In this document: one piece after another, positions 1-19,085 of the stretch
Layout of the letters: each line of letters starts with the position of its first letter
Position numbering within the stretch: the stretch's first letter is position 1
NCBI GenBank assembly: GCA_964490075.1
Contig: CAZBBK010000028.1
Span: 46,594-66,593 of the forward strand
DNA from: an uncultured Gemmatimonadota bacterium
GTDB taxonomy: Bacteria > GCA-2686955
Length of the DNA stretch: 20,000 bases
Reading direction: 5' to 3'
Translations under genes and position numbers: made by a program
Notes under the pieces: generated by a model
Seen by the model: only the letters and a program-made list of their open reading frames with translations
Database searches by the model: none
What the model was told of the DNA's origin: nothing

Positions 1-1113
1 GTGGGGCTGCTGGGCACTCTGCTCTACGACACCGGCAAGCGCCGCAGGGCCGCACCCCTGACAACACCCGATGCCCTGGAGCTGCAGAGCTTGCTGGCCG
101 AGATGGTGGAGGCCGGCTGTGACGCGGCGGTCCTGGAGGCCTCGTCGCACGGGCTCGATCTGCACCGGCTGGAAGGCTGCGACGTGCACGTCGGGGTCTA
201 TACCAACCTGAGTCGCGATCACCTGGACTACCACGGCTCCATGGAGCGCTACCGCGAGGTGAAGCTGCGACTGATCGACCAGGTGCGTCATTCCACCGGT
301 CCCTGGGACCGGGCGGTGGTCTACGATCGCGGCGTCGCCGCCTGGAGAACAATCCCCGAGCGTGCCGATCGGCTGCCCCTGGTGGTCTACGACTCGAGCG
401 CCGGGGAATGCTGCGAAGGGGCCTACTCGGTCTGCGCTCGGGGCGCCGACCTGCGGGGATCGACCTTCGCGCTGCACGGGCCCGATCTGCCGGCGGCCGG
501 GCTCGAGGGCCGTCTGCCGCTTCCGGGCCGCCACAATCTGGCCAATGCGCTGGCCGCCCTGAGCGCCTGCGTCGCCTGCGGACTCGATCCCGCGGCGTTG
601 GTCGCGGGCCTGGCCGAGTTCGGCGGCGTGCCGGGCCGGCTGGAGCCGGTGGCCGGGGGCGCCGGCACGCCGAGGGTGCTGGTCGACTACGCCCACACCC
701 CGGACGCCGTCGCCCGCGTGTTGCGCGAGCTGCGGCCCTTGGTGCCGGGTCGGCTGATCGCGGTATTCGGCTGCGGGGGAGACCGCGACCGCGGCAAGCG
801 GCCGGAGATGGGGCGCGCGGCGACCACCATCGCCGACCTCGCCATTCTCACCAACGACAATCCGCGCAGCGAGGATCCGCGGCGCATTGCAGACGATGTG
901 CTGGCGGGGGTGGAGGGAAGTTGCGAGCTGATCCTGGACCGTCGCGAGGCGATCGCCCGGGCGATCGACGCGGCGAGCCGGGAGGACGTCGTCGTGCTGC
1001 TCGGCAAGGGGCACGAGGACTACCAGATCGTGGGCAGCGAGCGGCGCGCCTTCGACGACCGCCAGGTCGCCGCGGCGCTGCTCGAGGCCCGCGCGGGGGA
1101 ATCGCAATCATGA
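1..1113 (+). CDS. murE: UDP-N-acetylmuramoyl-L-alanyl-D-glutamate:2,6-diaminopimelate ligase (5'-truncated by window edge)
   Basis: Motifs LTTPD, EASSHGL, TNLSRDHLDYH, VPGRLE, VDYAHTPDA, FGCGGDRDRGKRP, DNPRSEDP (DNPR = meso-DAP specificity motif) and GKGHEDYQ. The P-loop lies upstream of base 1. Confidence 0.97.
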   Translation: MGLLGTLLYDTGKRRRAAPLTTPDALELQSLLAEMVEAGCDAAVLEASSHGLDLHRLEGCDVHVGVYTNLSRDHLDYHGSMERYREVKLRLIDQVRHSTGPWDRAVVYDRGVAAWRTIPERADRLPLVVYDSSAGECCEGAYSVCARGADLRGSTFALHGPDLPAAGLEGRLPLPGRHNLANALAALSACVACGLDPAALVAGLAEFGGVPGRLEPVAGGAGTPRVLVDYAHTPDAVARVLRELRPLVPGRLIAVFGCGGDRDRGKRPEMGRAATTIADLAILTNDNPRSEDPRRIADDVLAGVEGSCELILDRREAIARAIDAASREDVVVLLGKGHEDYQIVGSERRAFDDRQVAAALLEARAGESQS

Positions 1114-1478
1114 TCGAGATCTTGATCGTTGACGACAGCCCGGAGATCCGCGCCTTCATGGGTGAATGCGTGGAGATGATGGGCATGCGGGCCACCGTGG
1201 CGGCGAGCGCCGGCGAGGCCCTGAGGCGGCTGGCGAGCCAGCCGGTCGACCTGGTCATCTCCGACCTGGCGATGCCCGGCATCGACGGCTGGGGACTGAT
1301 CGACCGCCTGCGCGGCGTGCATCCCGGTGTGCCGGTGGTGCTGATGAGCGGCTGGGATGTCGATCGCCGGCTGGCCCGCGCGCGCGGGGCCGCCGGTTGG
1401 CTCTCCAAGCCCTTTGGATACCGCGCGATGAAAGAGGCGATCCGTCCCTGGGTCGCCCTGGAGGAAGAGCTGGTATGA
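1110..1478 (+). CDS. Stand-alone CheY-like response regulator (single receiver domain, 122 aa)
   Basis: ATG at 1110 overlaps the murE stop (ATGA). ILIVDD acidic pocket (D8,D9), phosphoacceptor D52 in VISDLAMPGIDG, S80 in VVLMSG, K100 in WLSKPF. No output domain. Confidence 0.92.
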   Translation: MIEILIVDDSPEIRAFMGECVEMMGMRATVAASAGEALRRLASQPVDLVISDLAMPGIDGWGLIDRLRGVHPGVPVVLMSGWDVDRRLARARGAAGWLSKPFGYRAMKEAIRPWVALEEELV

Positions 1479-1684
1479 CCGCCGAACGATTCTACTGCGA
1501 CCGCAATGGACTGGTGGACCGGAGCGCCTGCGGGCTCTGCTTCGCGGCTGACGCGCAGCGCGCCGCCACCTACGTCACGCGAGCGATCTGCGCCTCGGCC
1601 CACGGCCGCTGGCTCGATGAAGGGCTCGTGACGCAACCGGCCCGAGTGCCGATCCTGATCCCGGTCGAGAGCCGGGTGGCCTGA
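1475..1684 (+). CDS. Small Cys-rich hypothetical protein (69 aa), possible Zn or Fe-S binder
   Basis: ATG at 1475 overlaps the regulator stop (ATGA), with SD-like GGAGGA at 1460-1465. Sequence MTAERFYCDRNGLVDRSACGLCF...AICASAHG... has pattern C8-x10-C19-x2-C22-x16-C39-x3-H43. The ORF exactly fills the gap up to the murF SD. Confidence 0.75.
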   Translation: MTAERFYCDRNGLVDRSACGLCFAADAQRAATYVTRAICASAHGRWLDEGLVTQPARVPILIPVESRVA

Positions 1685-1690
1685 GGAGGT
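1683..1690 (+). promoter_or_regulatory. Strong Shine-Dalgarno site for murF
   Basis: GAGGAGGT overlapping the stop of the Cys-rich ORF, 7 nt before GTG at 1698. Confidence 0.85.
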
Positions 1691-1697
1691 CGCGATC

Positions 1698-3092
1698 GTG
1701 GCCTGGACCGTCGCCGAGATCGCCGCCATCGCCAGGGGCGTGGTGCTGCGCGGGGACGCGTCCGCGACCCTCACCGGTGTCAGCATCGACAGCCGGCGCG
1801 TGACCCCCGGTGATCTCTTCGTGGCTTTGCCGGGGGAACAGAGCGACGGCCACGACCACGTCGACGCGGCTCTGGCCGCCGGCGCGGTCGCGGCGTGCGT
1901 GCGTCATTCCTGGACGTCTCCGCACGCCGTGGAGGGGACGCTGCTCGGTGTCTCCGACCCGCTGGCGGCGCTGCAGAGCTGGGCCGAGGCCCACCTGCTG
2001 AGCCTGACAGCGCGCACCGTCGGTGTGACCGGCAGCAACGGCAAGACCACCACCAAGGACCTGGCGCGCGTCGCTCTCGGGGGCGGGGCGCGGATCGGTG
2101 CCACCCTCGGCAACTACAACAACCAGATCGGCCTGCCGCTCTCGATCCTGGCCATGGGGCCCGAGGTGCGGATCGCGGTGCTGGAGATGGGGATGTCGAC
2201 TCCCGGCGAGATCGCGCGCCTGGTCGAGATCGCCCCGCCGGAGGTGGCGGTGATCACCAACGTGGGGCCGGCCCACCTGGAGAGCCTGGGAAGCATCGAG
2301 GCGATCGCCCGCGCCAAGCTGGAGATCCTGAACCGCGCTCCGGCGCTCGCGCTGCTGCCCTGTGGCGCGCCGCGGCTGCTGGAACCGGCCCGCGAGCGGC
2401 TCGCCGCGGGACAGAGCCTGCGCACCTTCGGCACCCAGCCCGAGGCCGACTACCGGGCCACCGACATCGAGGCGACGGGCGCCGGGGGCACGCGCTTCCT
2501 GGTCAACGGCAAGGGGCCGGTCGAGCTGCCGATCTTCGGCGTCCACAACGTGTTGAACGCTCTGGCGGCGATCGCCGTCGCGGAGCGCATGGGGCGCGCC
2601 TGGGACGAGATCCGCGCCGCCCTGGCGGCGGCCTCGCCGGCGCCGATGCGCTCGGAGTGGAGGCGGATCGGCGCCCTGCGTCTGATCAACGACGCCTACA
2701 ACGCCAACCCCGCCTCGATGGTCGCGGCGATCAAGTCCCTGGCCGCCACGCCGGCCCAGGGGCGGCGAGTGCTGGTGCTCGGCGACATGTTGGAGCTCGG
2801 GCCGCGCGCCGCTGAGCACCATCGCAGCGTCGGCCTGGCCGCCGATTCCGCCGGCATCGATCTGCTGCTGACGGTGGGAGAGCGGGCGGCCGAGATCAGC
2901 GCCGCGGCGAGCCGTCTGAGCGGCGCCGGACAGGCCCATCATTTCGCAGCAATAGGCGCGGCCGCCGAGTTTCTGGCCGGAGCCGGCGCGGCCGGCGACC
3001 TGGTGCTGATCAAGGCCTCGCGCGGCATGGCCCTGGAGGGGCTGATCGACGAGCTGGCGCTGATTCTGGGCGCCCGCGAGGGGGACGACTGA
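1698..3092 (+). CDS. murF: UDP-N-acetylmuramoyl-tripeptide:D-alanyl-D-alanine ligase
   Basis: Motifs SIDSR, DGHD, VTGSNGKTTTKD, NYNNQIGLPL, LEMGM, AHLE, INDAYNANPASM, LGDMLELG, KASRG. Confidence 0.97.
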   Translation: MAWTVAEIAAIARGVVLRGDASATLTGVSIDSRRVTPGDLFVALPGEQSDGHDHVDAALAAGAVAACVRHSWTSPHAVEGTLLGVSDPLAALQSWAEAHLLSLTARTVGVTGSNGKTTTKDLARVALGGGARIGATLGNYNNQIGLPLSILAMGPEVRIAVLEMGMSTPGEIARLVEIAPPEVAVITNVGPAHLESLGSIEAIARAKLEILNRAPALALLPCGAPRLLEPARERLAAGQSLRTFGTQPEADYRATDIEATGAGGTRFLVNGKGPVELPIFGVHNVLNALAAIAVAERMGRAWDEIRAALAAASPAPMRSEWRRIGALRLINDAYNANPASMVAAIKSLAATPAQGRRVLVLGDMLELGPRAAEHHRSVGLAADSAGIDLLLTVGERAAEISAAASRLSGAGQAHHFAAIGAAAEFLAGAGAAGDLVLIKASRGMALEGLIDELALILGAREGDD

Positions 3093-6662: not shown

Positions 6663-7825
6663 TGCGGGTGCTCTTCGCCGGCGGCGGTACCGGAGGACAT
6701 GTCTACCCGGCCCTGGCGGTCGCCGAGTTCATGGCCGGCGCCGAGATGCTCTTCGTCGGCTCGCAGCGCGGAATCGAGGAGGGGATCGTGCGCGGTGCCG
6801 GTCTGGAGTATCGGGGTCTGCCGATCGAGGGGCTGCACCGGCGCCTGACGGCCGAAAATCTGTTGTTTCCGGTGCGCCTGGCGACGGCCCTGGCGGCGGC
6901 CTGGGCCCTGGTGCGTGCTTTTCGGCCGCAGGTGGTGCTGGGGACCGGCGGATTCGCCAGCGCTCCGCCGGTGCTGGCGGCGCAGCTGCGCGGGGTGCCG
7001 ACGCTGCTCCAGGAACAGAATGCCTATCCCGGAGTGACCACGCGGCTGCTGGCGCGGCGCGCATGCGAGGTGCACATCGCCTTCCAGGAGGCGGCGGCAC
7101 GGTTGCCGCGCAGCGCCGAAGCACGCACCCGGCTGACCGGCAATCCGGTGCGCGGCTCGCTGGTCGAGCGCCTTGGCGCTGCCGGCTCCCGCGCGCAGGG
7201 AGCGGCGGAGCGGCGCGCCGCGCGGGCACGAATCGAGGGGCTCGATGCCGACCTGCCGGTGGTTCTGGTGTTCGGCGGCAGCCAGGGCTCGCGCCTGCTC
7301 AATACCGCGCTGGCGGCCTTCCTGGAGGCGGGTCCGGATGCCGTGACGATCCCGTTCCAGATCCTCTGGGCCACCGGGCGCAAGCTCCACCAGGAGGTAC
7401 TGGAGCGTCAGCTTCCGGCCGAGCCGGCGCTGCCCGTGCAAGTGCGTCCCTACCTGGAGGAGATCTCGGTGGCCTATGCCGCGGCCGACCTGGTGGTTTG
7501 TCGGGCAGGGGCGATCACCTGCGCGGAGCTGGCCCTGGTCGGCCGGCCGGCGCTGCTGGTGCCGCTGGCGTCGGCGGCCGGCGACCACCAGGGCCACAAC
7601 GCAGCCGCCCTCGCCGGGGCCGGGGCGGCACGGATGCTGGAAGAGCGCCGGCTGCGCGAGGGCGCCGCCGGAGGCCGCGAGCTGGGGCGGATGATCGGCG
7701 AGCTGATGGCCGACCGTGCCGCGTTGGAGAGGATGGCGGGCGCCGCACGCGCCCTGGCACGCCCCGATGCCGCACGCACCATCTCGGAGCGGCTGCGGGC
7801 GCTGGCCGGAGGAGCGCGATCATGA
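6662..7825 (+). CDS. murG: Lipid I N-acetylglucosamine transferase (387 aa)
   Basis: ATG at 6662 (TGATG overlap, SD GAGGAG upstream). Motifs AGGGTGGHVYPA, GTGGFAS, EQNAYPG, TGNPVR, FGGSQG, RAGA, HQ..NA. Confidence 0.97.
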   Translation: MRVLFAGGGTGGHVYPALAVAEFMAGAEMLFVGSQRGIEEGIVRGAGLEYRGLPIEGLHRRLTAENLLFPVRLATALAAAWALVRAFRPQVVLGTGGFASAPPVLAAQLRGVPTLLQEQNAYPGVTTRLLARRACEVHIAFQEAAARLPRSAEARTRLTGNPVRGSLVERLGAAGSRAQGAAERRAARARIEGLDADLPVVLVFGGSQGSRLLNTALAAFLEAGPDAVTIPFQILWATGRKLHQEVLERQLPAEPALPVQVRPYLEEISVAYAAADLVVCRAGAITCAELALVGRPALLVPLASAAGDHQGHNAAALAGAGAARMLEERRLREGAAGGRELGRMIGELMADRAALERMAGAARALARPDAARTISERLRALAGGARS

Positions 7826-10254
7826 CCAGGGCAAGGCCGCGGACCTCGCCGCGCTCGCAGCGCACCCGCGCCGAGCACTCGCTCTTCGGCAGCGTGCGCC
7901 GCATCCACCTGGTGGGGATCGGCGGCACCGGCATGTGCGGCATCGCCGAAGTGTTGCTGAACCTCGGCTTCACCGTGACCGGCACCGACCTCGGCTCCAC
8001 CGAGGTGACGAATCGTCTCGAGGCGCTGGGTGCTCGCATCGCCCACGACCACCACAGTCCCCTGGTGCTCGACGCCGACGTTGTGGTGGTCTCGACGGCG
8101 ATTGGGCCGGACAACCCGGAGCTGCGGGCCGCGCGCGAGCGCGCGCTGCCGGTGATTCGCCGTGCCGAGATGCTGGCGGAGCTGATGCGTATGAAGCGCG
8201 GCATCGCCGTCGGTGGTTCGCACGGCAAGACCACCGTCAGCTCCATGGCCGGCGGGGTGCTGATCGAAGGTGGGCTCGATCCGACCGTGGTGGTGGGGGG
8301 GCGGGTCAAGCGCCTGGGGTCGAACGCGCGGGTCGGCGCCGGCGACACCATGGTGGTGGAGGCCGACGAGTCGGACGGTACTTTTCTGCACCTACAGCCG
8401 ACGATCGCGATCGTCACCAACATCGACTGGGAGCACGTCGACTACTACGCCGACCTCGACCAGACCCTGGACGCCTTCGTCCACTTCGCCAACGGTGTTC
8501 CCTTCTACGGCGCCGTGGTCCTTTGCCTGGACGATCCCAACGCGCGGCTGGCGATTCCACGCATCACGCGCCGCATCCTGACCTACGGGCTGGAGCCGGG
8601 CGCCGACCTGGTGGCGACCAAGGTGCGCGCCATCGAGGGCGGCTCGCGTTTCGAGCTGGTGTGGCAGGGCGACACCCTGGGAAGCTGCGATCTGGCGGTT
8701 CCCGGAAGACACAATATCGCCAACGCGCTGGCCGCCGCCACCGTGGGGCTCGAGCTGGGCCTCGACGCCGCCGACATCTTTCGCGGGCTGGAGAGCTTCT
8801 CCGGAGTGGCGCGCCGCCTGGAGCGTCGCGGAGAGAGCCGAGGGGTGGTGGTCTACGACGACTATGCGCACCACCCGCGCGAAATCGAAGCGACGCTGCG
8901 GGCCCTTCGCGAGCAGTGGCCCGGACGCGTGGTGGCGGTGTTTCAGCCGCACCGTTACAGCCGGGCGGAAGCCCTGGCGGACGACTTCGGTCGCTCCTTC
9001 TACGGCGCCGACAGCCTGATCGTGGTGCCGATCTACCCCGCCGGCGAAGAGCCGCGAGAGGGGATCGACGCCTCGATGTTGGCCGGCAAGTGTCGCGCTT
9101 ATGGCCACAAAGACGTGCACCTGGCCGACGATCTCGAGGCCGCCGCGGCGACCTTGGCGGCCAGCGCTGCGGCCGGCGACCTGGTGATCACCTTGGGGGC
9201 CGGATCGGTGTGGCGGGTCGGGTCGACGCTCCTGGAGCTGCTCGCGCGCCAGCCGGCGGCGAGCGTCGCTTCCGGCGGCGAGGGAAGCGCCGCGGCACCC
9301 GCGGTGCATGCCCCTTCGGCCGACGCACGCGCCCTGGTGGCCGATCTCGAGGGAGAGGCGCTGCCAGAGCATTCTCTGGAACGGTGCACCTCGCTGCGCC
9401 TCGGGGGACCCGCCGAAGTGCTCTTCGTGCCGGCATCCGCCGCTGCCGCCGCCGAGGCGATCAGCCGCGCACTGGCCGCCGAGCTGCCGGTGACGACGAT
9501 CGGAGGCGGCACCAATCTGCTGATCGCCGAGCGCGGCGTGCGCGGCCTGGTTCTGTCGCTGGGTGGGGCATTCCGCGGCATCTCGATCGAAAGCGAGGCC
9601 CGGGTGCTATGTGGCGCCGCGGCGCCGCTGGCGAAGGTCATGCGCGACACTCTGCGCGCCGGACTGGTGGGCATGGAGCCACTGGCCGGAGTACCCGGTT
9701 CGCTGGGAGGGGCGCTGGTCATGAACGCCGGAACGCGCGACGGAGAGATCGGCGATCTGGTGGTGGCGGTGCGCGGTGTCGATGCCGCCGGTCGCCTGGT
9801 CGAGGTGGCCGGAAATGATCTCGCCTTCGGCTATCGTCGCTCCGCCGTGGCCGAGCTCGGTCTCACCCTGCTCGAAGTGGAGCTGGCACTGGAGGAGGGA
9901 GATTCGGCGGCGGCACTGGAGCGAGCCCGCGAGCTGCGCGATTATCGCAACGCCACCCAGCCGCACAAAGTGCGCTCCGCCGGCTCGGTGTTCAAGAATC
10001 CGCCCGGCGACGCCGCCGGCAGGTTGATCGATTCCTGTGGACTCAAGAGCTCGACCCTCGGCGGGGCGCGGGTATCGCCGGTCCATGCCAACTTCCTGGT
10101 GGCCGAGACGGGCTGCTCCTCGCGACACATGGCGCGCCTGATCGAACGCTGCCGGCGCGCGGTCTGGAAGCAGCACGGCATCGCCTTGGAGCTGGAGATC
10201 CGACCCCTGGGCTTCGCCGCCGGCGAGCTGCCCCCGACCTGGAGCGGGCGATGA
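7822..10254 (+). CDS. murC-murB: Fused UDP-N-acetylmuramate:L-alanine ligase (MurC) / UDP-N-acetylenolpyruvoylglucosamine reductase (MurB), 810 aa
   Basis: ATG at 7822 (ATGA overlap, SD GGAGGAG). MurC motifs GIGGTGM, GSHGKTT, EADESDGTF, TNIDWEH, DDYAHHP, FQPHRYSR, LGAG. An Ala/Gly/Pro/Ser linker at ~9250-9330 has no stop. MurB motifs follow: GGPA, GGGTNLL, GVPGSLGGALVMNAG, FGYR, QP...SAGSVFKNP, HANF, LELE. Confidence 0.93.
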   Translation: MTRARPRTSPRSQRTRAEHSLFGSVRRIHLVGIGGTGMCGIAEVLLNLGFTVTGTDLGSTEVTNRLEALGARIAHDHHSPLVLDADVVVVSTAIGPDNPELRAARERALPVIRRAEMLAELMRMKRGIAVGGSHGKTTVSSMAGGVLIEGGLDPTVVVGGRVKRLGSNARVGAGDTMVVEADESDGTFLHLQPTIAIVTNIDWEHVDYYADLDQTLDAFVHFANGVPFYGAVVLCLDDPNARLAIPRITRRILTYGLEPGADLVATKVRAIEGGSRFELVWQGDTLGSCDLAVPGRHNIANALAAATVGLELGLDAADIFRGLESFSGVARRLERRGESRGVVVYDDYAHHPREIEATLRALREQWPGRVVAVFQPHRYSRAEALADDFGRSFYGADSLIVVPIYPAGEEPREGIDASMLAGKCRAYGHKDVHLADDLEAAAATLAASAAAGDLVITLGAGSVWRVGSTLLELLARQPAASVASGGEGSAAAPAVHAPSADARALVADLEGEALPEHSLERCTSLRLGGPAEVLFVPASAAAAAEAISRALAAELPVTTIGGGTNLLIAERGVRGLVLSLGGAFRGISIESEARVLCGAAAPLAKVMRDTLRAGLVGMEPLAGVPGSLGGALVMNAGTRDGEIGDLVVAVRGVDAAGRLVEVAGNDLAFGYRRSAVAELGLTLLEVELALEEGDSAAALERARELRDYRNATQPHKVRSAGSVFKNPPGDAAGRLIDSCGLKSSTLGGARVSPVHANFLVAETGCSSRHMARLIERCRRAVWKQHGIALELEIRPLGFAAGELPPTWSGR

Positions 10255-11162
10255 GACGCGTCAAGAAAGCGCGGCGAACCATGCAGATGCAAACGATGGC
10301 GCGGCCGCGGCGCCCCGCGCGGCGCCGGATCTCTGCGCCGGCGAATCCCCTGCGGCGCCTCGCGCGACTCCCCGCGCGCCTGCCCCCAGCGCTGCGCAGG
10401 GCGGCGGCGGCGGCGTGCGCGCTCGTGCTGCTGGCGGCTGCTCTGGGAGCCGCGGCCGATGCCGCCTCCGAGCCTCTGCGGGCGGAGCTGCACGACGCAG
10501 CCTGGCTGAGGGTGCGCGGAATCGCGGTGCGCGGAACCTGCACTCTGAACCCGGAGCAAGTGCGGGCCGCCCTGCCCGGCGTGACCGGCACCCATATCTT
10601 CGTCGCCAACTGCGACAGTCTCGCGGAGCGGGTGGAAGGAATCGAGCGCGTGCTCAGTGCACGCGTGACTCGCAATCTGCTGCTTCGTAGAATCGATGTT
10701 TGCGTCGAGGAACGGACCGCGGTAGCATTGGCGCTCGATGCCGCGGGACGCCCGCAGGAAATCGACGCCACCGGAGTTTTTTTGCCGATCGATCCCGACC
10801 GAGTAGAACGAGATCTGGTGTTCCTCGTCGGCACCGCGGAAGGTGGTGTCGCCGGAATCGAGGCCGGTTTGGCGGTGATCCAGGCGCTGCGCGTGCGGGG
10901 ACTCGAAGTGTTGCTGAGTGAGCTCGACGTCTCCGATCCGGCCTTCCCGGTCGGTGTCGAAGTCGCGACCGGTACCCGGGTCGAGTTTTCCGATCGCTAC
11001 CCCGCCGCGCGCCAGGCCGAGCACCTGGCGGTGGTGCTGCAGACGATCGGAGAGAAGAACCTGATCCCCGAGCGAATCGATTTGCGTTTCCCGGGTCTGG
11101 TCGAGGTCATCCCGAAGAATCAGGCGGACGGGCCCCCGCCCGCGCGCCAGGAGAGGGGGTGA
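10251..11162 (+). CDS. ftsQ: Cell division protein FtsQ/DivIB
   Basis: Basic cytoplasmic N-terminus, one hydrophobic helix (AACALVLLAAALGA), a POTRA-like segment (LRVRGIAVRG...EQV), VEER and C-terminal IDLRF. Located before ftsA. The start could be a later ATG. Confidence 0.85.
   Translation: MRRVKKARRTMQMQTMARPRRPARRRISAPANPLRRLARLPARLPPALRRAAAAACALVLLAAALGAAADAASEPLRAELHDAAWLRVRGIAVRGTCTLNPEQVRAALPGVTGTHIFVANCDSLAERVEGIERVLSARVTRNLLLRRIDVCVEERTAVALALDAAGRPQEIDATGVFLPIDPDRVERDLVFLVGTAEGGVAGIEAGLAVIQALRVRGLEVLLSELDVSDPAFPVGVEVATGTRVEFSDRYPAARQAEHLAVVLQTIGEKNLIPERIDLRFPGLVEVIPKNQADGPPPARQERG
10665..10693 (+). promoter_or_regulatory. Candidate internal sigma70-type promoter within ftsQ (for ftsA-ftsZ)
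   Basis: GTGACT (10665-10670), 17-nt spacer, TAGAAT (10688-10693): 4/6 and 5/6 matches to TTGACA/TATAAT. Built from codons unusual for this GC-rich DNA (CTT CGT AGA). Confidence 0.45.
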
Positions 11163-13852: not shown

Positions 13853-14086
13853 ATGCCCGGAACGCGGACCAGCCGACCCCGACGCCTGCTCTTCGCTCTG
13901 CTCGCGATGCTCTCGAGCCTCGCGGCACTCGAAGGCGGGGCGCGGCTGGTCGCGCGGCGGATCCCCATCGCCGGTCTCGACGCCGATCCCTTCTTCGGCT
14001 TCTTCGGCTTCCAGACCTTCTTCGAGGCGCTGCCCTCCGCCGCTGACAGCCTGCGCACTCGCCCGGCCATGTCGACGATTCGATGA
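13853..14086 (+). CDS. 77-aa membrane-anchor ORF; probably the frameshift-separated N-terminus of the downstream SGNH protein
   Basis: Basic N-terminus, hydrophobic helix (LLFALLAMLSSLAALEGGARL) and DPFFGF, resembling the anchor segment that typically precedes RIxCLGxS in membrane-tethered SGNH proteins. Its stop overlaps the next ATG. Confidence 0.65.
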   Translation: MPGTRTSRPRRLLFALLAMLSSLAALEGGARLVARRIPIAGLDADPFFGFFGFQTFFEALPSAADSLRTRPAMSTIR

Positions 14087-16692
14087 TGCGCGACCTGCGC
14101 TTCGCGCGTCGGGCGCCCAAGGAGCGCATGCGCATCGTCTGCCTGGGCGGCTCGGTGACCCGCGCCGAGTACCCCTTCTACATGGCCGACTATCTCGGCG
14201 GTGAGGTGGGCCACCCGGGAGTCGATCCCCCGCCTCCCTTCGACTCGATCGAGCTCATCAACTCCGGCTTCGGCGGCATGGGATCGACCCGGGTGATGCT
14301 CCTGATGCGCGAGATCCTGGGCTACGACCCCGATCTGATCGTCCTCTCCTCGGGCCACAACGAGTTTCTCGAACGCAACTTCTACCGTCCCCTGCTGGAG
14401 CGCAGCCCCTGGCTTCTGCGCCTGCAGGCTCTCTTCTATCGCAGCACCGCCGCGCGCCTGGCGCGGGTCGCGCTGCGCGCCCTGCGCGACACCTACGGCG
14501 GCTTCGAGCACGAGTCGGTCTCGCCCCTCTATCTCGACATGGAGAACCGCCCCTTCGTGGATCCGCGGCCCACGGCGGACGCTTCTTTCTGCGATCCGGT
14601 GCTGCTCAACTACACACGCAATCTGCTGGCCATGGTCGAAATGGCCCGCGAGCGCGGCGTGGCGCTGGTGCTGGCCACCCTGCCGACCCACCTGGCGGTC
14701 AATTCCGGGTTTCTGCGTCCCTACTGGCCCGATCCCTCGCGGCCTCCGATCGAGACCCCCTGGGCGGGGGACCGCAACGCGATCGGCCACGAGGTCGACG
14801 TGGCGGTGGCTCTGAACCTGCTGGCCGAGGGCCGCGCCGCGCCGGCCCTGTCCCGGATCGACGCGCTGCCCGACGACCTGGCGCGGCATCCGATGGTGCC
14901 GGTGTGGCGGGCGGAATGCCTCGATTCGCTCGGGCGCGGCGACCGGGCCTGGGCCGCGCGCTTCGAAGCGCTGCGCCGGACCACTCCCGCCGGCGATCGC
15001 AGCCTCCAGAACATCGCCATCCGAATCGCCGCACGCCTCGGCGGCGCGCCGGTGATCGATGTGGTGCGCGGAATGCGCCGCGCCGGAGAGGCGATGGGCG
15101 ATCCACTGCACGAGTTTCTCTGGGGAGACAGTGTGCACCCGGCCTTCAGCGGCTACGCGACCATGGGGGAGGCGGCCGCTCGCGACATCGAGGCCTGGTG
15201 GGCAAGGGGCGGCACCATGCCGGCCGCCGGCTCCGGCTTCCGCCCCGGCCCGGAGCGAGACCGACGGCTGCGGGCCGCGCTGGCCGCGGCGATCGACCCC
15301 TGCGCGGAATCCGAGAGCTGGTTCGCCGATCCCGATCCGCTGATCCGCGAGGCCGCCGCCTGGGGAGCCGGCTCCCCGCTCTGCGCCTGCGGCGACCGCG
15401 TTCTCAGCCGGCTCGCGGCTGCCGAGGCCGATCCCGGAGTGCGGATCGCCCTGCTCACCAGCGCGGCGGTGCGCGCCCACCCCGCGGCCGCGGCTCTGGT
15501 GCTCGACGCCCTCGAATCGGATGTCGAAGCCCTACACCTGGCGGCGATCCGGGCCGCAGGACTGGCCCGGCTCGAAGAGCTGGCCCCCGAGCTTCACGCC
15601 CGGCTCGTCGCTCCGGATGCCAGCGCGGCCGAGCAGGCCGAGCTGCTCTGGGCACTGGGGAGGATCGGCAGCGCGCCCGATCCCGCCCCGCTGCGGGACT
15701 TCTGCCGCGCCCATCTCGATCGAGGCTGCGACGCCCAGGTGGCCGCCGCGGCCTGCTTCGCCCTGGGCCGCATCGCATGCGAAGACGCGGCGGTGTTGCT
15801 GGAAGCGATGCTCGATCATCCCCACCCCTCGGTGGTCACCAACGCCCTCTGGGCACTGGCGGTGCTCGCCGGGGACGGGCTCCGCGTGGTCCCCGGGGTG
15901 CTGAGCGCCGCCGCGCCGCAGAACTGCAACGCTCCCCCGCGTCGGGCGAGGCTCGAAGCGAACTGGCACCCTCAGCTCGCGACCCGCGTCGCAGGGCTGG
16001 TCGCCAACCCCTGGCCGCCGATCGCCAGCGCCGCGGTGTCGCTCCTGGCACGGCTGCCGCGGCGGGCCGGTCTGGAGGCGCTGCTGCGCCATCCCGAGCT
16101 CGCGTCCCGGGAAGGGGTCGTCGAGCTCTACCTGGCCGAGCTCGCCGATCTGGTCGGTCCGGCCGATGCGGATGCACTGCGGCGCCTTGCGCGCACCGCG
16201 CCGGCCCACTTCTTGCCCCTGTTGGCGCTGGTCGATCCAGAGGCCGCGCTCGCCCTGGGCGGCACCGAGGCGGTCTGGAACGAGTGGAGCGTCACCGTGT
16301 CCAGGGCCCGCGCCGGCGATCGCGATGCGCTCGAGCGGATCCACCGCGATCTGCGGGAGCAGACGACGCCCGGAGCCGCACCGGTCGGCTCCCATCGGCC
16401 CGAGACGGCCTGGCAGATCGAGGCGTTGGGGATCTGCGGCGCTGAATCACACGCCCAGGTGTTGCGCCGCATCCTGCGCGACTCCCGGGTGACGGTCGAC
16501 ATCCAGGAGCCGGCGGCGACCGCCCTGGGGCGCATCGGCGACCGCGCCTGGCTCTCCGACTTGCCGGCCGTGCTGCCGGAAGGCGGCTTGCACCTCAGGA
16601 TCGCGGTGGCGCGGGCGCTCCTGCGCAGGAACGACGAAACCGAGGTCCGAGACCTCTTCGAGCGCTCGCTCGGGGCCGGTCCGAGTCCATGA
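14083..16692 (+). CDS. SGNH/GDSL hydrolase-fold protein with TPR-like insertion and C-terminal HEAT/PBS-lyase-like repeats
   Basis: Block I RIVCLGGS, block II INSGFGG, block III DLIVLSSGHNEF, block V DSVHP. HEAT-like units follow, e.g. DPDPLIREAAAW, LLWALGRIG, ACFALGRIA, LDHPHPSVVTNALWAL, AATALGRIG. Confidence 0.8.
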   Translation: MMRDLRFARRAPKERMRIVCLGGSVTRAEYPFYMADYLGGEVGHPGVDPPPPFDSIELINSGFGGMGSTRVMLLMREILGYDPDLIVLSSGHNEFLERNFYRPLLERSPWLLRLQALFYRSTAARLARVALRALRDTYGGFEHESVSPLYLDMENRPFVDPRPTADASFCDPVLLNYTRNLLAMVEMARERGVALVLATLPTHLAVNSGFLRPYWPDPSRPPIETPWAGDRNAIGHEVDVAVALNLLAEGRAAPALSRIDALPDDLARHPMVPVWRAECLDSLGRGDRAWAARFEALRRTTPAGDRSLQNIAIRIAARLGGAPVIDVVRGMRRAGEAMGDPLHEFLWGDSVHPAFSGYATMGEAAARDIEAWWARGGTMPAAGSGFRPGPERDRRLRAALAAAIDPCAESESWFADPDPLIREAAAWGAGSPLCACGDRVLSRLAAAEADPGVRIALLTSAAVRAHPAAAALVLDALESDVEALHLAAIRAAGLARLEELAPELHARLVAPDASAAEQAELLWALGRIGSAPDPAPLRDFCRAHLDRGCDAQVAAAACFALGRIACEDAAVLLEAMLDHPHPSVVTNALWALAVLAGDGLRVVPGVLSAAAPQNCNAPPRRARLEANWHPQLATRVAGLVANPWPPIASAAVSLLARLPRRAGLEALLRHPELASREGVVELYLAELADLVGPADADALRRLARTAPAHFLPLLALVDPEAALALGGTEAVWNEWSVTVSRARAGDRDALERIHRDLREQTTPGAAPVGSHRPETAWQIEALGICGAESHAQVLRRILRDSRVTVDIQEPAATALGRIGDRAWLSDLPAVLPEGGLHLRIAVARALLRRNDETEVRDLFERSLGAGPSP
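15319..16630 (+). repeat. Degenerate protein-level HEAT/ARM-like helical repeat region
   Basis: Roughly 8-9 recurring L-x-D-x-x-x-x-V/I-R-x-x-A-x-x-A-L-G-R-I-like units in the translation. No DNA-level tandem identity. Confidence 0.7.
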
Positions 16693-19085
16693 GGTTGCAT
16701 CCCGGGGCCTCCCGAATCCTCGCGCACGCCACGTTCTTTCTGCTCTCGGCGCTCCTGGTGCTGGCGGCACCCGATCTGGTCGGCTGGGGCGACGCGCTCG
16801 CGCCCCGGACCCGGGCCGGCGACGTGGTCGACCCGGAGATCGAGGTGCGTGGCGAGGTCGGCTGGCGCAAGGGCCTCTTCGAGCTGAACGCCTCCAACAG
16901 CCTGGTGCACCAGGGCGGAATCGAGGCGCCGGGAGGCCTGCGCCTGCGCTTGGAGCGGGGCCGCGGGGCCGGTCAGCTGCGCGTCGAGTTCGCCGCCGGG
17001 GCGGCAACCCGCTACGCCTGTGTCCTGCACGCCGATCCCGAACAAGGCGGCGTGTTCGCCGGCGACGAGCGTCTGCTGGGACCCTTTCGCTTCGACTCGA
17101 TGCGCGATCCGGGTGGCACCGGCAAGCGCGCGCTCCGGTTTCGCCAGCTGGTCGTGGAGGTCTCCGAGGACGGGGTCGTGCGAGCCTCGGTCGACGGCCG
17201 GCCGGCCGGATCGGCGCCGGCGCCGCTGCCGATCGAGCGCGGGATCCTCGAGATCGAGGCGCCCCGCGACCCCCACTACAGCGGGTTCCACTTCGCCTCC
17301 GCGACCCTCGGCGACGGGCGGCAGGAGCTGCGCGTGGCGGCCGGATTCGCCCCGCTGATCGACCTGCGTTTCGGTCCCTGCGGAAGCTGGCAGCGGCCGA
17401 CCCAGTGGCTCGTCGCCCTCGCGCTCCTGGCGGTCTGGGCGGCGCTCCTCGAGTCGGCTCTGGACCGGGTCGCTGGAGCGCGCCGCGATCGCCGCCGGGC
17501 GCTGCGCTTCCTCCTGCTGCCGACGTTCTGGGCGCTGCTCTACGCCTTCGCCGAGCTCCTGGCGCTGCCGCGCAACATGGCGCTGGTCCATGGTGCCGTG
17601 ATCGGCGTCGCCCATCTGCTACGGGCCGTCGATCTCACCTTCGCGCGCGGTGCCCGGTCGCTCGGGGGGCCCGCGGCCGCGCTCGGCGGAGGATTGGCGC
17701 TGGCGGCCGCCACCCTCTGGCTGATGGCCCAGGGCTCGAGCTCGGTCTGGTACGAGCCGGCGATCCCCACCACGACCAGCCCATGGTGGACTCCGGCGCT
17801 GGCGCTGGTCGCCTGCGCCGGGTTGCTCGGCAGCCGGTCCTATCCGCTCGGGACCTTCGCGTTCTTCGCGCCACAGGGTCTGCACTGGCTGTGGCTCACG
17901 CGCCTGCATCCCGATCCCAACGCGACGATCTTCCTCGCGGTCGCGCTGCTGCCCTGGATCGCCTTCAGCGCGCTGCGCATCGCGGCCCGGCCGCGCCGGC
18001 CGCGTCTGTTGATGCTGCTGGTGGCGCTGGTTCCCATGGCGGTGGCGCTGGTGGCGTTCGAGCTCTGCCTCAGGCAGCCCTTCAAGCGCTTCGAGGAGCT
18101 GGAATACGATGCCTTCGCGGTCGCCAAGTCGTGGCGAATCCGCGAGCACACCAATCTGCTGGGATCTTGGGACGGCGTCCCCAGCGCACAGCTCCGCGGC
18201 CGCTGCCACCCTCTCGAGCCCGATCCCGAGGTGCCGCGCATCGTCTGCCTGGGCAGCTCGTCCACCGCCGCCTCGGGGCTTCCGCCGGCCTCGCCCGACG
18301 CCTACCCGGCCCAGCTCGAGGCTCGGCTGCGGGCGCGGCTGGGGCGTGAGGTCGAGGTGCTGAACGGCGGGATTCCCGGTGCCGGCCTCTACATGATCCG
18401 TGTCTACCTCGAGGAGGTGCTGCTGCGCTTCCGGCCCGACCTGGTGGTGCTCTACTTCGGCGCCAACCGCGAGCTGCCGGAGAACCGCCTCTTCTACTGG
18501 CGGATGCGGGAGCTCCTCCAGCGCCACCCGTGGATCGAGTCGGGGGAGGAGCTGGCCGCCGCGATGGAGCTGCGTTTCCTCTCCCCCTCGCTGCTGCACG
18601 CCTACATGGCCGGGCTGCGCTGGCGGGTGGTCTACGGCCTGCGGCTGCTGGTCAACGCCGCGCTCGATCGCGGCCAGCAAGGGCGGGGCGATCCTCGGGC
18701 GCGCGCGGCCGTCGAGGCCTTCCTGGGTGGGGACCGGGCCAAGCCCCACAAGAGCGCCGACGAGATCGCCGAGCATTGCCTGCTCGCCGGCGTGCCGCTG
18801 GTGCTGGTTCCCGAGATCACCTGGAGCAGTCAGACCGGCTCCGGCGACGGCCACGACTATCGCCCGATCTTCCTGCGGGTGGCCGATTCCCATGGCCCCG
18901 AGGTGGAGACGCTCTGGCCCATCGGGCTCTTCCCGCGCGACGCATTGGAGCGCTGCATGAACGACGAGGTCCACCTCTCGCCGCGGGGCTACGGCCTGTT
19001 GGCGGAGTGGCTGGCGGACGAGCTGATCGCGGGCGGTTGGATCGAGCTACAACCGATACGCGAGCCGCAGGCTCAGCTCCCGTGA
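16689..19085 (+). CDS. Multi-pass membrane protein with C-terminal SGNH/GDSL hydrolase domain
   Basis: ATGA overlap with the previous gene. N-terminal hydrophobic segment, a soluble beta-rich region, then about 8 hydrophobic helices, then SGNH blocks RIVCLGSS, VLNGGIPG, DLVVLYFGAN and DEVHLS. Confidence 0.8.
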   Translation: MRLHPGASRILAHATFFLLSALLVLAAPDLVGWGDALAPRTRAGDVVDPEIEVRGEVGWRKGLFELNASNSLVHQGGIEAPGGLRLRLERGRGAGQLRVEFAAGAATRYACVLHADPEQGGVFAGDERLLGPFRFDSMRDPGGTGKRALRFRQLVVEVSEDGVVRASVDGRPAGSAPAPLPIERGILEIEAPRDPHYSGFHFASATLGDGRQELRVAAGFAPLIDLRFGPCGSWQRPTQWLVALALLAVWAALLESALDRVAGARRDRRRALRFLLLPTFWALLYAFAELLALPRNMALVHGAVIGVAHLLRAVDLTFARGARSLGGPAAALGGGLALAAATLWLMAQGSSSVWYEPAIPTTTSPWWTPALALVACAGLLGSRSYPLGTFAFFAPQGLHWLWLTRLHPDPNATIFLAVALLPWIAFSALRIAARPRRPRLLMLLVALVPMAVALVAFELCLRQPFKRFEELEYDAFAVAKSWRIREHTNLLGSWDGVPSAQLRGRCHPLEPDPEVPRIVCLGSSSTAASGLPPASPDAYPAQLEARLRARLGREVEVLNGGIPGAGLYMIRVYLEEVLLRFRPDLVVLYFGANRELPENRLFYWRMRELLQRHPWIESGEELAAAMELRFLSPSLLHAYMAGLRWRVVYGLRLLVNAALDRGQQGRGDPRARAAVEAFLGGDRAKPHKSADEIAEHCLLAGVPLVLVPEITWSSQTGSGDGHDYRPIFLRVADSHGPEVETLWPIGLFPRDALERCMNDEVHLSPRGYGLLAEWLADELIAGGWIELQPIREPQAQLP

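Follow-up and report, generated by a model that had tools for sequence, protein, structure and literature searches.

A four-cysteine mini-protein family at the murE–murF junction of a poorly sampled bacterial lineage

The open reading frame at positions 1475–1684 of the window, the 20,000-nucleotide stretch of DNA from an uncultured Gemmatimonadota bacterium that was analysed here, is a genuine conserved gene under purifying selection. Its product, which we refer to as the Cys4 protein, is a member of an unclassified and very narrowly distributed family of mini-proteins that is fixed at the murE–murF junction of its lineage. The features of the region, in window coordinates, are as follows.

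1–1113 (+): murE, 3' part, the gene beginning 5' of the window (Pfam Mur_ligase_M, 1.5e-31; Mur_ligase_C, 1e-32)
1110–1478 (+): receiver-only response regulator P0002, 122 residues (Pfam Response_reg, E 5.5e-23)
1460–1464 (+): Shine–Dalgarno-like GGAGG, 10 nt before the Cys4 ATG (from the sequence)
1475–1684 (+): gene of the Cys4 mini-protein P0001, 69 residues, stop codon included (translation, frame conservation, pN/pS, dN/dS, GC3)
1475–1606 (+): conserved N-terminal domain, residues 1–44 (nine-row alignment)
1496–1498, 1529–1531, 1538–1540 and 1589–1591 (+): codons of the four cysteines
1601–1603 (+): codon of His43
1607–1672 (+): variable linker, residues 45–66, probably disordered (unalignable, of varying length; AF2 pLDDT)
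1673–1681 (+): C-terminal Arg-Val-Ala (RVA), residues 67–69 (alignment)
1685–1689 (+): GGAGG abutting the 3' side of the Cys4 stop codon, 8 nt ahead of the murF GTG (from the sequence)
1698–3092 (+): murF (Pfam Mur_ligase_M, 3e-41; Mur_ligase_C, 2.5e-20; Mur_ligase, 1e-9)

Translation of 1475–1684 yields the 69-residue protein with a C-x10-C-x2-C-x16-C-x3-H pattern reported in the initial annotation; the pattern is formed by Cys8, Cys19, Cys22, Cys39 and His43 and is followed by a tail that makes up the C-terminal end of the protein, PARVPILIPVESRVA. The good ribosome-binding site and coupled start that had been described are also present: the GGAGG at 1460–1464 precedes an ATG (1475–1477) that overlaps the receiver TGA (1476–1478) as ATGA, and the murE/receiver junction is an ATGA overlap of the same kind. 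A GGAG is found 7–12 nt 5' of the Cys4 start in all five genomes in which the locus was compared. The choice of start is supported by the conserved M-T-[AS] N-terminus, by one relative (G001) in which the open frame at the locus spans just 78 residues and by public gene calls for the relatives, which are 66–81 residues long. In the mechanical list of open reading frames the gene lies hidden, as had been noted, within a 172-residue call, the frame being open upstream to an ATG at 1166. This longer call is an artefact of stop-poor, G+C-rich sequence, since its 5' part overlaps the receiver gene, which lies in another frame.

Several measures place selection in the Cys4 frame. Over the first 44 codons, taken ungapped, it is the sole open frame of the six in all four orthologues of the GTDB family; it has the lowest mean pN/pS among them (0.42, compared with 0.57–2.40 in the other five frames) and the highest residue identity (0.58 versus 0.26–0.48). 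Where dS was defined, in four pairs within the family, Nei–Gojobori dN/dS came to 0.24, 0.19, 0.37 and 0.14. Two other within-family pairs were saturated, as were all pairs involving G004, the most distant member, the values of which (0.93, 0.52, 0.21 and one undefined) are uninformative. GC3 (0.84) exceeds GC1 (0.69) and GC2 (0.57) and is highest in this frame. In an antisense ORF of 312 residues (848–1786) the first codon positions fall on the wobble positions of the sense frame, and its frame ('- 0') gives a pN/pS of 1.27. The occurrence of four cysteines within 44 residues is unlikely to be due to chance: cysteine accounts for 34 of 3021 residues (1.1%) in eight neighbouring genes, and against this background the binomial probability of at least four is 0.0015. 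The identical cysteine spacing in all nine family sequences is more telling than this probability. Cysteine conservation and dN/dS among homologs had been named in the initial annotation as checks on the gene, and both speak for it, with the four cysteines kept at fixed spacing in 9/9 sequences and dN/dS at 0.14–0.37 within the family.

The three further genomes of this GTDB family each contain an orthologue (E values of 4e-18, 3e-17 and 1e-8), and a single-sequence query gave no significant match in 36 more distant genomes (best E value 0.056). The GTDB phylum comprises five species genomes, each of which contains exactly one match to a Cys4 profile, and in all five this match sits between murE and murF; the weakest of these matches (E 1.3e-6) is that of G004, which belongs to another family. 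GTDB thus recognizes a phylum of just five species genomes; in NCBI three relatives are Gemmatimonadota or Gemmatimonadetes MAGs, and the lineage seems to be classed differently by the two resources. An exhaustive phmmer search over 1.84 billion representative proteins gave six matches at E ≤ 0.001, five of which carry the cysteine pattern (P0003–P0007); the other, P0008, an internally repetitive protein of 230 residues, lacks it and was not counted as a member. When 5.8 billion clustered proteins were searched with a profile, only eight came up, of 66–81 residues and all unnamed or annotated as 'hypothetical protein'; P0009 is the protein from G002 and P0010 that from G001. A locus on a metagenome contig (L012) that matched residues 1–25 only, without the cysteine pattern and antisense in a flagellin neighbourhood, was discarded as a false positive. 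None of 8000 candidates scored was a longer or fused relative at E ≤ 0.01, a result that argues only weakly against such forms. The family as defined here consists of nine distinct sequences, G004 included, from one small lineage together with four metagenome proteins (P0004–P0007), and conservation was therefore measured over a limited depth.

Within these nine sequences M1, F6, C8, G12, C19, C22, F23, R36 and C39 are invariant and the spacing of the cysteines is constant. The block [TS]RAICAS occurs in eight of them, the ninth (G004) having SRVQCKAS. The only conserved histidine follows C39 and is replaced by asparagine in two of the nine (G001 and G004), so that the motif is C4 rather than the C4H originally described, the four cysteines alone being kept throughout. 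AF2 predicts, at low confidence, a β-hairpin (residues 5–8 and 12–15) followed by short helices that carry C19/C22 and C39, with a disordered tail; the pLDDT is 59.6 over the full length and 64.9 for residues 1–47, both in the low-confidence range. Past residue ∼45 no alignment of the sequences is possible, their lengths vary, and the pLDDT falls below 50 at residues 50–54, 57–59 and 61–65. The proline-rich and hydrophobic tail pointed out in the initial annotation is present; its conservation is confined to the final three residues, RVA, which end six of the nine sequences (as [ST]RVA in five of these) and are absent from P0006, P0007 and G004. The codons for RVA are CGG GTG GCC, CGG GTG GCA, CGA GTC GCC and CGG GTT GCC in four genomes of the family. 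Because these codons vary synonymously and the murF Shine–Dalgarno sequence lies 3' of the stop codon, selection on RVA is exerted at the level of the protein, not of the DNA, and conservation of the 3' end for the sake of a murF ribosome-binding site was rejected on the same grounds.

Assignment to known families was sought at several levels. Pfam and NCBIfam scans of the Cys4 protein gave nothing above noise, in keeping with the earlier remark that the family was not a recognized one. In an hmmscan of eight members against Pfam-A at E ≤ 10 no match was common to the family; three members gave one weak match each, to the unrelated families Barwin, PSI_Plexin-B and DUF6986. The matches in a profile search of the PDB were engineered OspA chains, in which no stretch passed on its own, and were judged to be spurious; neither FhuF nor any Fe–S protein was returned. 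A search of the ESM Atlas gave no usable match. Foldseek against the PDB, run twice with two AF2 models of low confidence, found nothing at E ≤ 0.001, and VIA-align wide, also with a low-confidence AF2 model, placed none of 48,161 chains at Z ≥ 2. The fold and profile searches for which the initial annotation had called have thus produced no family, PDB or fold match, with AF2 models that are themselves of low confidence. The full-text literature that was searched described no such gene between murE and murF and no protein with the whole cysteine spacing, and passages of PMC8871954 likewise contained nothing relevant.

The genomic setting is the canonical dcw cluster, as judged from Pfam scans of the ORFs in the window and in the 12 kb upstream of it. 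The order of genes is mraZ, rsmH, an ORF at the ftsL position, ftsI, murE, the receiver gene, the Cys4 gene, murF, mraY, murD, ftsW, murG, murC–murB, an ORF at the ftsQ position, ftsA and ftsZ. The ORFs at the ftsQ (window, 10251–11162, +) and ftsL (L019, 9003–9650, +) positions have no Pfam match at E ≤ 1e-5 and may encode divergent FtsQ-like and FtsL-like proteins. The murF start lies 13 nt past the Cys4 stop codon, the GGAGG after this stop recurs at the corresponding position in G002 and G003, and no promoter-like or terminator-like sites were found in 900–2000. A RiPP precursor or secreted peptide was considered and rejected, as the protein lacks a signal peptide and maturase genes are absent from the window and the 12 kb upstream.

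Other features of the cluster deserve mention in their own right. The FtsI-type transpeptidase just upstream of the window (L019, 9647–11578, on contig G000:C28) has two C-terminal PASTA matches (Pfam, 8.3e-18); such domains are commonly seen in Gram-positive enzymes of the PBP2x type and in PknB kinases. The two large tandem ORFs right after ftsZ (869 and 798 residues; 14083–19085, +) match GDSL-like lipases/acylhydrolases, and one of them also contains HEAT repeats. The murC and murB genes share one uninterrupted 810-codon frame (7822–10254, +) in which Mur ligase domains are followed by FAD_binding_4 and MurB_C (Pfam) with no intervening stop, a MurC–MurB chimera of the type mentioned in passages of one source as reported mainly from Verrucomicrobia (PMC10214165). 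The same passages place the dcw cluster among the most conserved bacterial gene arrays and murE–murF as its most often fused pair (PMC10214165). They also describe a physical association between MurE and MurF and, in many Proteobacteria, fusions of the two, some of which contain linkers of 200–300 residues with no recognizable fold (PMC10214165). Given this association and these fusions, the murE–murF junction can tolerate or make use of additional polypeptide and is a plausible place for an accessory one.

We infer, with somewhat less than even confidence, that the Cys4 protein combines a metal-binding mini-domain, with zinc as the favoured metal, a linker and a docking tip, and that it serves as an accessory or regulatory subunit together with MurE, MurF or the division machinery. 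The invariant cysteines fit either a zinc or an Fe–S site, between which sequence alone cannot distinguish. Metal binding is probable and, given the substitutions at His43, plausible as C4 and not as C4H; zinc is favoured because the ligand set would consist of four cysteines with no Fe–S family signature. In the domain of ∼44 residues the four cysteines would most likely hold one metal ion (Zn2+ favoured), and this site would fold the β-hairpin and the short helices. The variable and probably disordered linker of ∼20 residues would tether the C-terminal [S/T]-R-V-A tip, which may act as a short docking motif in those members that possess it, RVA being missing from three of the nine sequences. 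The Cys4 gene shares its polycistronic message with those of MurE, the stand-alone receiver and MurF, and translational coupling would keep its product in step with MurE and MurF. The protein therefore most likely works with the Mur ligases that make peptidoglycan precursors in the cytoplasm, or with the division machinery, to which it would be a small accessory or regulatory subunit. Gene neighbourhood alone lends such a link, whether physical or functional, little weight.

A rather unlikely alternative is that the protein is an Fe–S or thiol-redox sensor in which a [2Fe–2S] or [4Fe–4S] cluster, or a redox-labile zinc–thiolate centre, ties cell-wall synthesis to redox or iron status, so that loss or oxidation of the centre would alter the activity of the protein. 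The invariance of the four cysteines would suit such a sensor, and WhiB-like proteins, which are small four-cysteine Fe–S proteins, act in actinobacterial cell division. The C-x10-C-x2-C spacing moreover equals that of the last three ligands in the C-C-x10-C-x2-C motif given for FhuF in part of one source (10.1101/2023.07.04.547673). However, none of the nine sequences has a cysteine before C8, and the fourth ligand lies 16 residues downstream, unlike the single loop of FhuF. The weak Pfam matches, each to a different family, and the PDB profile search, with its lack of any Fe–S protein, also argue against this reading.

The neighbouring receiver is a clear response-regulator domain, scoring 81.7 bits against a Response_reg gathering cutoff of 30.2. 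The acidic pocket, the phospho-acceptor Asp and the Ser/Thr and Lys of such domains are all represented: across the four orthologues D8, D9, D52 and K100 do not vary, and position 80 is always serine or threonine. Identity is 61–63% for G002 and G003 and 43% for G004. The order murE–receiver–Cys4–murF recurs in G002, G003 and G004, so that a receiver stands at the site in four of the five genomes. In G001 the Cys4 gene, with its RVA codons, follows murE immediately and overlaps its stop codon; the 3 kb flanking it on each side contain no receiver gene, and the genome (83% complete) has no clear receiver orthologue, the best match, at 40% identity, being at the level of a paralogue. Conversely, the receiver is present and RVA absent in G004. 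An association with the receiver is therefore not obligatory: the five genomes have in common the C4 domain and its location between murE and murF, while the receiver (4/5) and RVA (4/5) are dispensable and uncoupled from one another. The initial annotation had suggested an adaptor for the neighbouring receiver, for which no positive evidence emerged and against which the case of G001 stands. A predicted complex of the receiver (four-row alignment), zinc and the Cys4 protein (eight-row alignment) scored 0.00 in both of two runs made without controls, which speaks neither for nor against an interaction. No histidine kinase was seen among the ORFs scanned in the dcw cluster.

In most members the Cys4 protein may pass on the state of the receiver next to it. 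A bolder form of this idea, which we consider quite improbable, is that the receiver and the Cys4 protein constitute a lineage-specific checkpoint in the Mur pathway that gates the hand-over from tripeptide to pentapeptide according to receiver phosphorylation; a metal-loaded or redox-sensitive mini-protein would then dock on MurE and/or MurF through its domain and the RVA tip. If this were true, it would amount to post-translational two-component control of cytoplasmic peptidoglycan precursor synthesis, for which there is no described counterpart.

A proteolysis module, in which the receiver would be a CpdR-like ClpXP adaptor and RVA a ClpX-type degron, appears very doubtful. CpdR is a single-domain regulator that serves as a ClpXP adaptor. 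The Cys4 protein would then be an unstable inhibitor or activator subject to regulation, or else would tether a bound partner for delivery to the protease. The C-terminus is indeed free and nonpolar and its residues are conserved, the tmRNA tag of the genome, ADNQLAMAA, also ends in a small nonpolar pair, and the receiver is stand-alone with all phospho-acceptor residues present. CpdR is among its NCBIfam matches (5e-14), yet at 52.3 bits this match is far under the model cutoff of 180 and no better than those to two dozen other receiver models. RVA, moreover, is unlike the MAA end of the genome's own tag, and its independence from the receiver in G001 and G004 runs counter to a shared degradation pathway.

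That the frame is non-functional, either open by chance in G+C-rich DNA or translated merely to couple ribosomes to murF, is disfavoured to the point of being scarcely credible: long spurious ORFs are common here (the 172-residue frame and the antisense frame at 848–1786) and the gene is tightly coupled on both sides, but residue-level purifying selection is specific to the Cys4 frame, the cysteine pattern is invariant across sequences that are only 23–66% identical, RVA is kept through synonymous changes and the start and stop positions are retained in 5/5 genomes.

Returning to the favoured reading of a metal-binding accessory subunit, the presence of a conserved, selected signalling domain and a Cys4 mini-protein between murE and murF points to an accessory or control step in precursor synthesis. 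The family is an addition to the small proteins where automatic annotation gives 'hypothetical protein', in a poorly sampled lineage of five species genomes. Were it to prove a structural zinc mini-protein with a lineage-specific role, its value would be modest and mainly one of cataloguing. The protein is of a size suited to NMR and to simple assays of bound metal.

Among known systems, zinc ribbons and treble clefs resemble the Cys4 protein in being small, cytoplasmic four-cysteine units, and in the predicted model the CxxC likewise stands at a helix start after a β-hairpin. They differ in that the Cys4 protein has one CxxC, with single cysteines 10 residues before and 16 residues after it; the two CxxC/CxxH knuckles and the structural similarity that characterize these folds were not found, the models being of low confidence. 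The zinc-binding anti-sigma (ZAS) motif is H-x3-C-x2-C, but where this motif has its histidine, four residues ahead of the first cysteine of the CxxC (C19), the nine sequences have D, T, T, S, S, S, D, S and T. WhiB-like (Wbl) proteins, which are found in Actinobacteria, are small and cytoplasmic, with four invariant cysteines, and some are tied to septation. Their cysteines are spaced C-x(14–22)-C-x2-C-x5-C and they contain a G[VI]WGG turn, whereas the Cys4 family has x10, x2 and x16 in 9/9 sequences and no such turn, and the Pfam Whib model matched none of eight members at E ≤ 10. The initial annotation was thus right to set the spacing apart from that of WhiB and from the CxxCxxC pattern.

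The [2Fe–2S] protein FhuF shares the C-x10-C-x2-C spacing exactly. According to part of the source cited above, consecutive cysteines of its motif bind different Fe atoms, with the ligands in one loop (10.1101/2023.07.04.547673). The Cys-Cys pair is absent from the Cys4 family in 9/9 sequences (position 7 is Y, Q, H, F, V, F, I, R and E), the fourth Cys4 cysteine lies beyond the CxxC and FhuF, unlike this mini-protein, is a large reductase. Neither the PDB profile search nor the Pfam scan of eight members revealed sequence similarity to FhuF.

The linkers described for MurE–MurF chimeras in passages of PMC10214165 offer a likeness of another sort, in that an extra polypeptide with no recognizable fold occurs at the murE–murF junction. 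Here, in contrast, the junction holds two separate, translationally coupled genes, those of the receiver and the Cys4 protein, in place of a fused linker. In FtsZ and SSB a variable linker joins a folded domain to a short C-terminal motif, which is conserved and serves for docking on partners. By analogy, and with no implication of homology, the Cys4 protein may be viewed as having the same core–linker–tip design.
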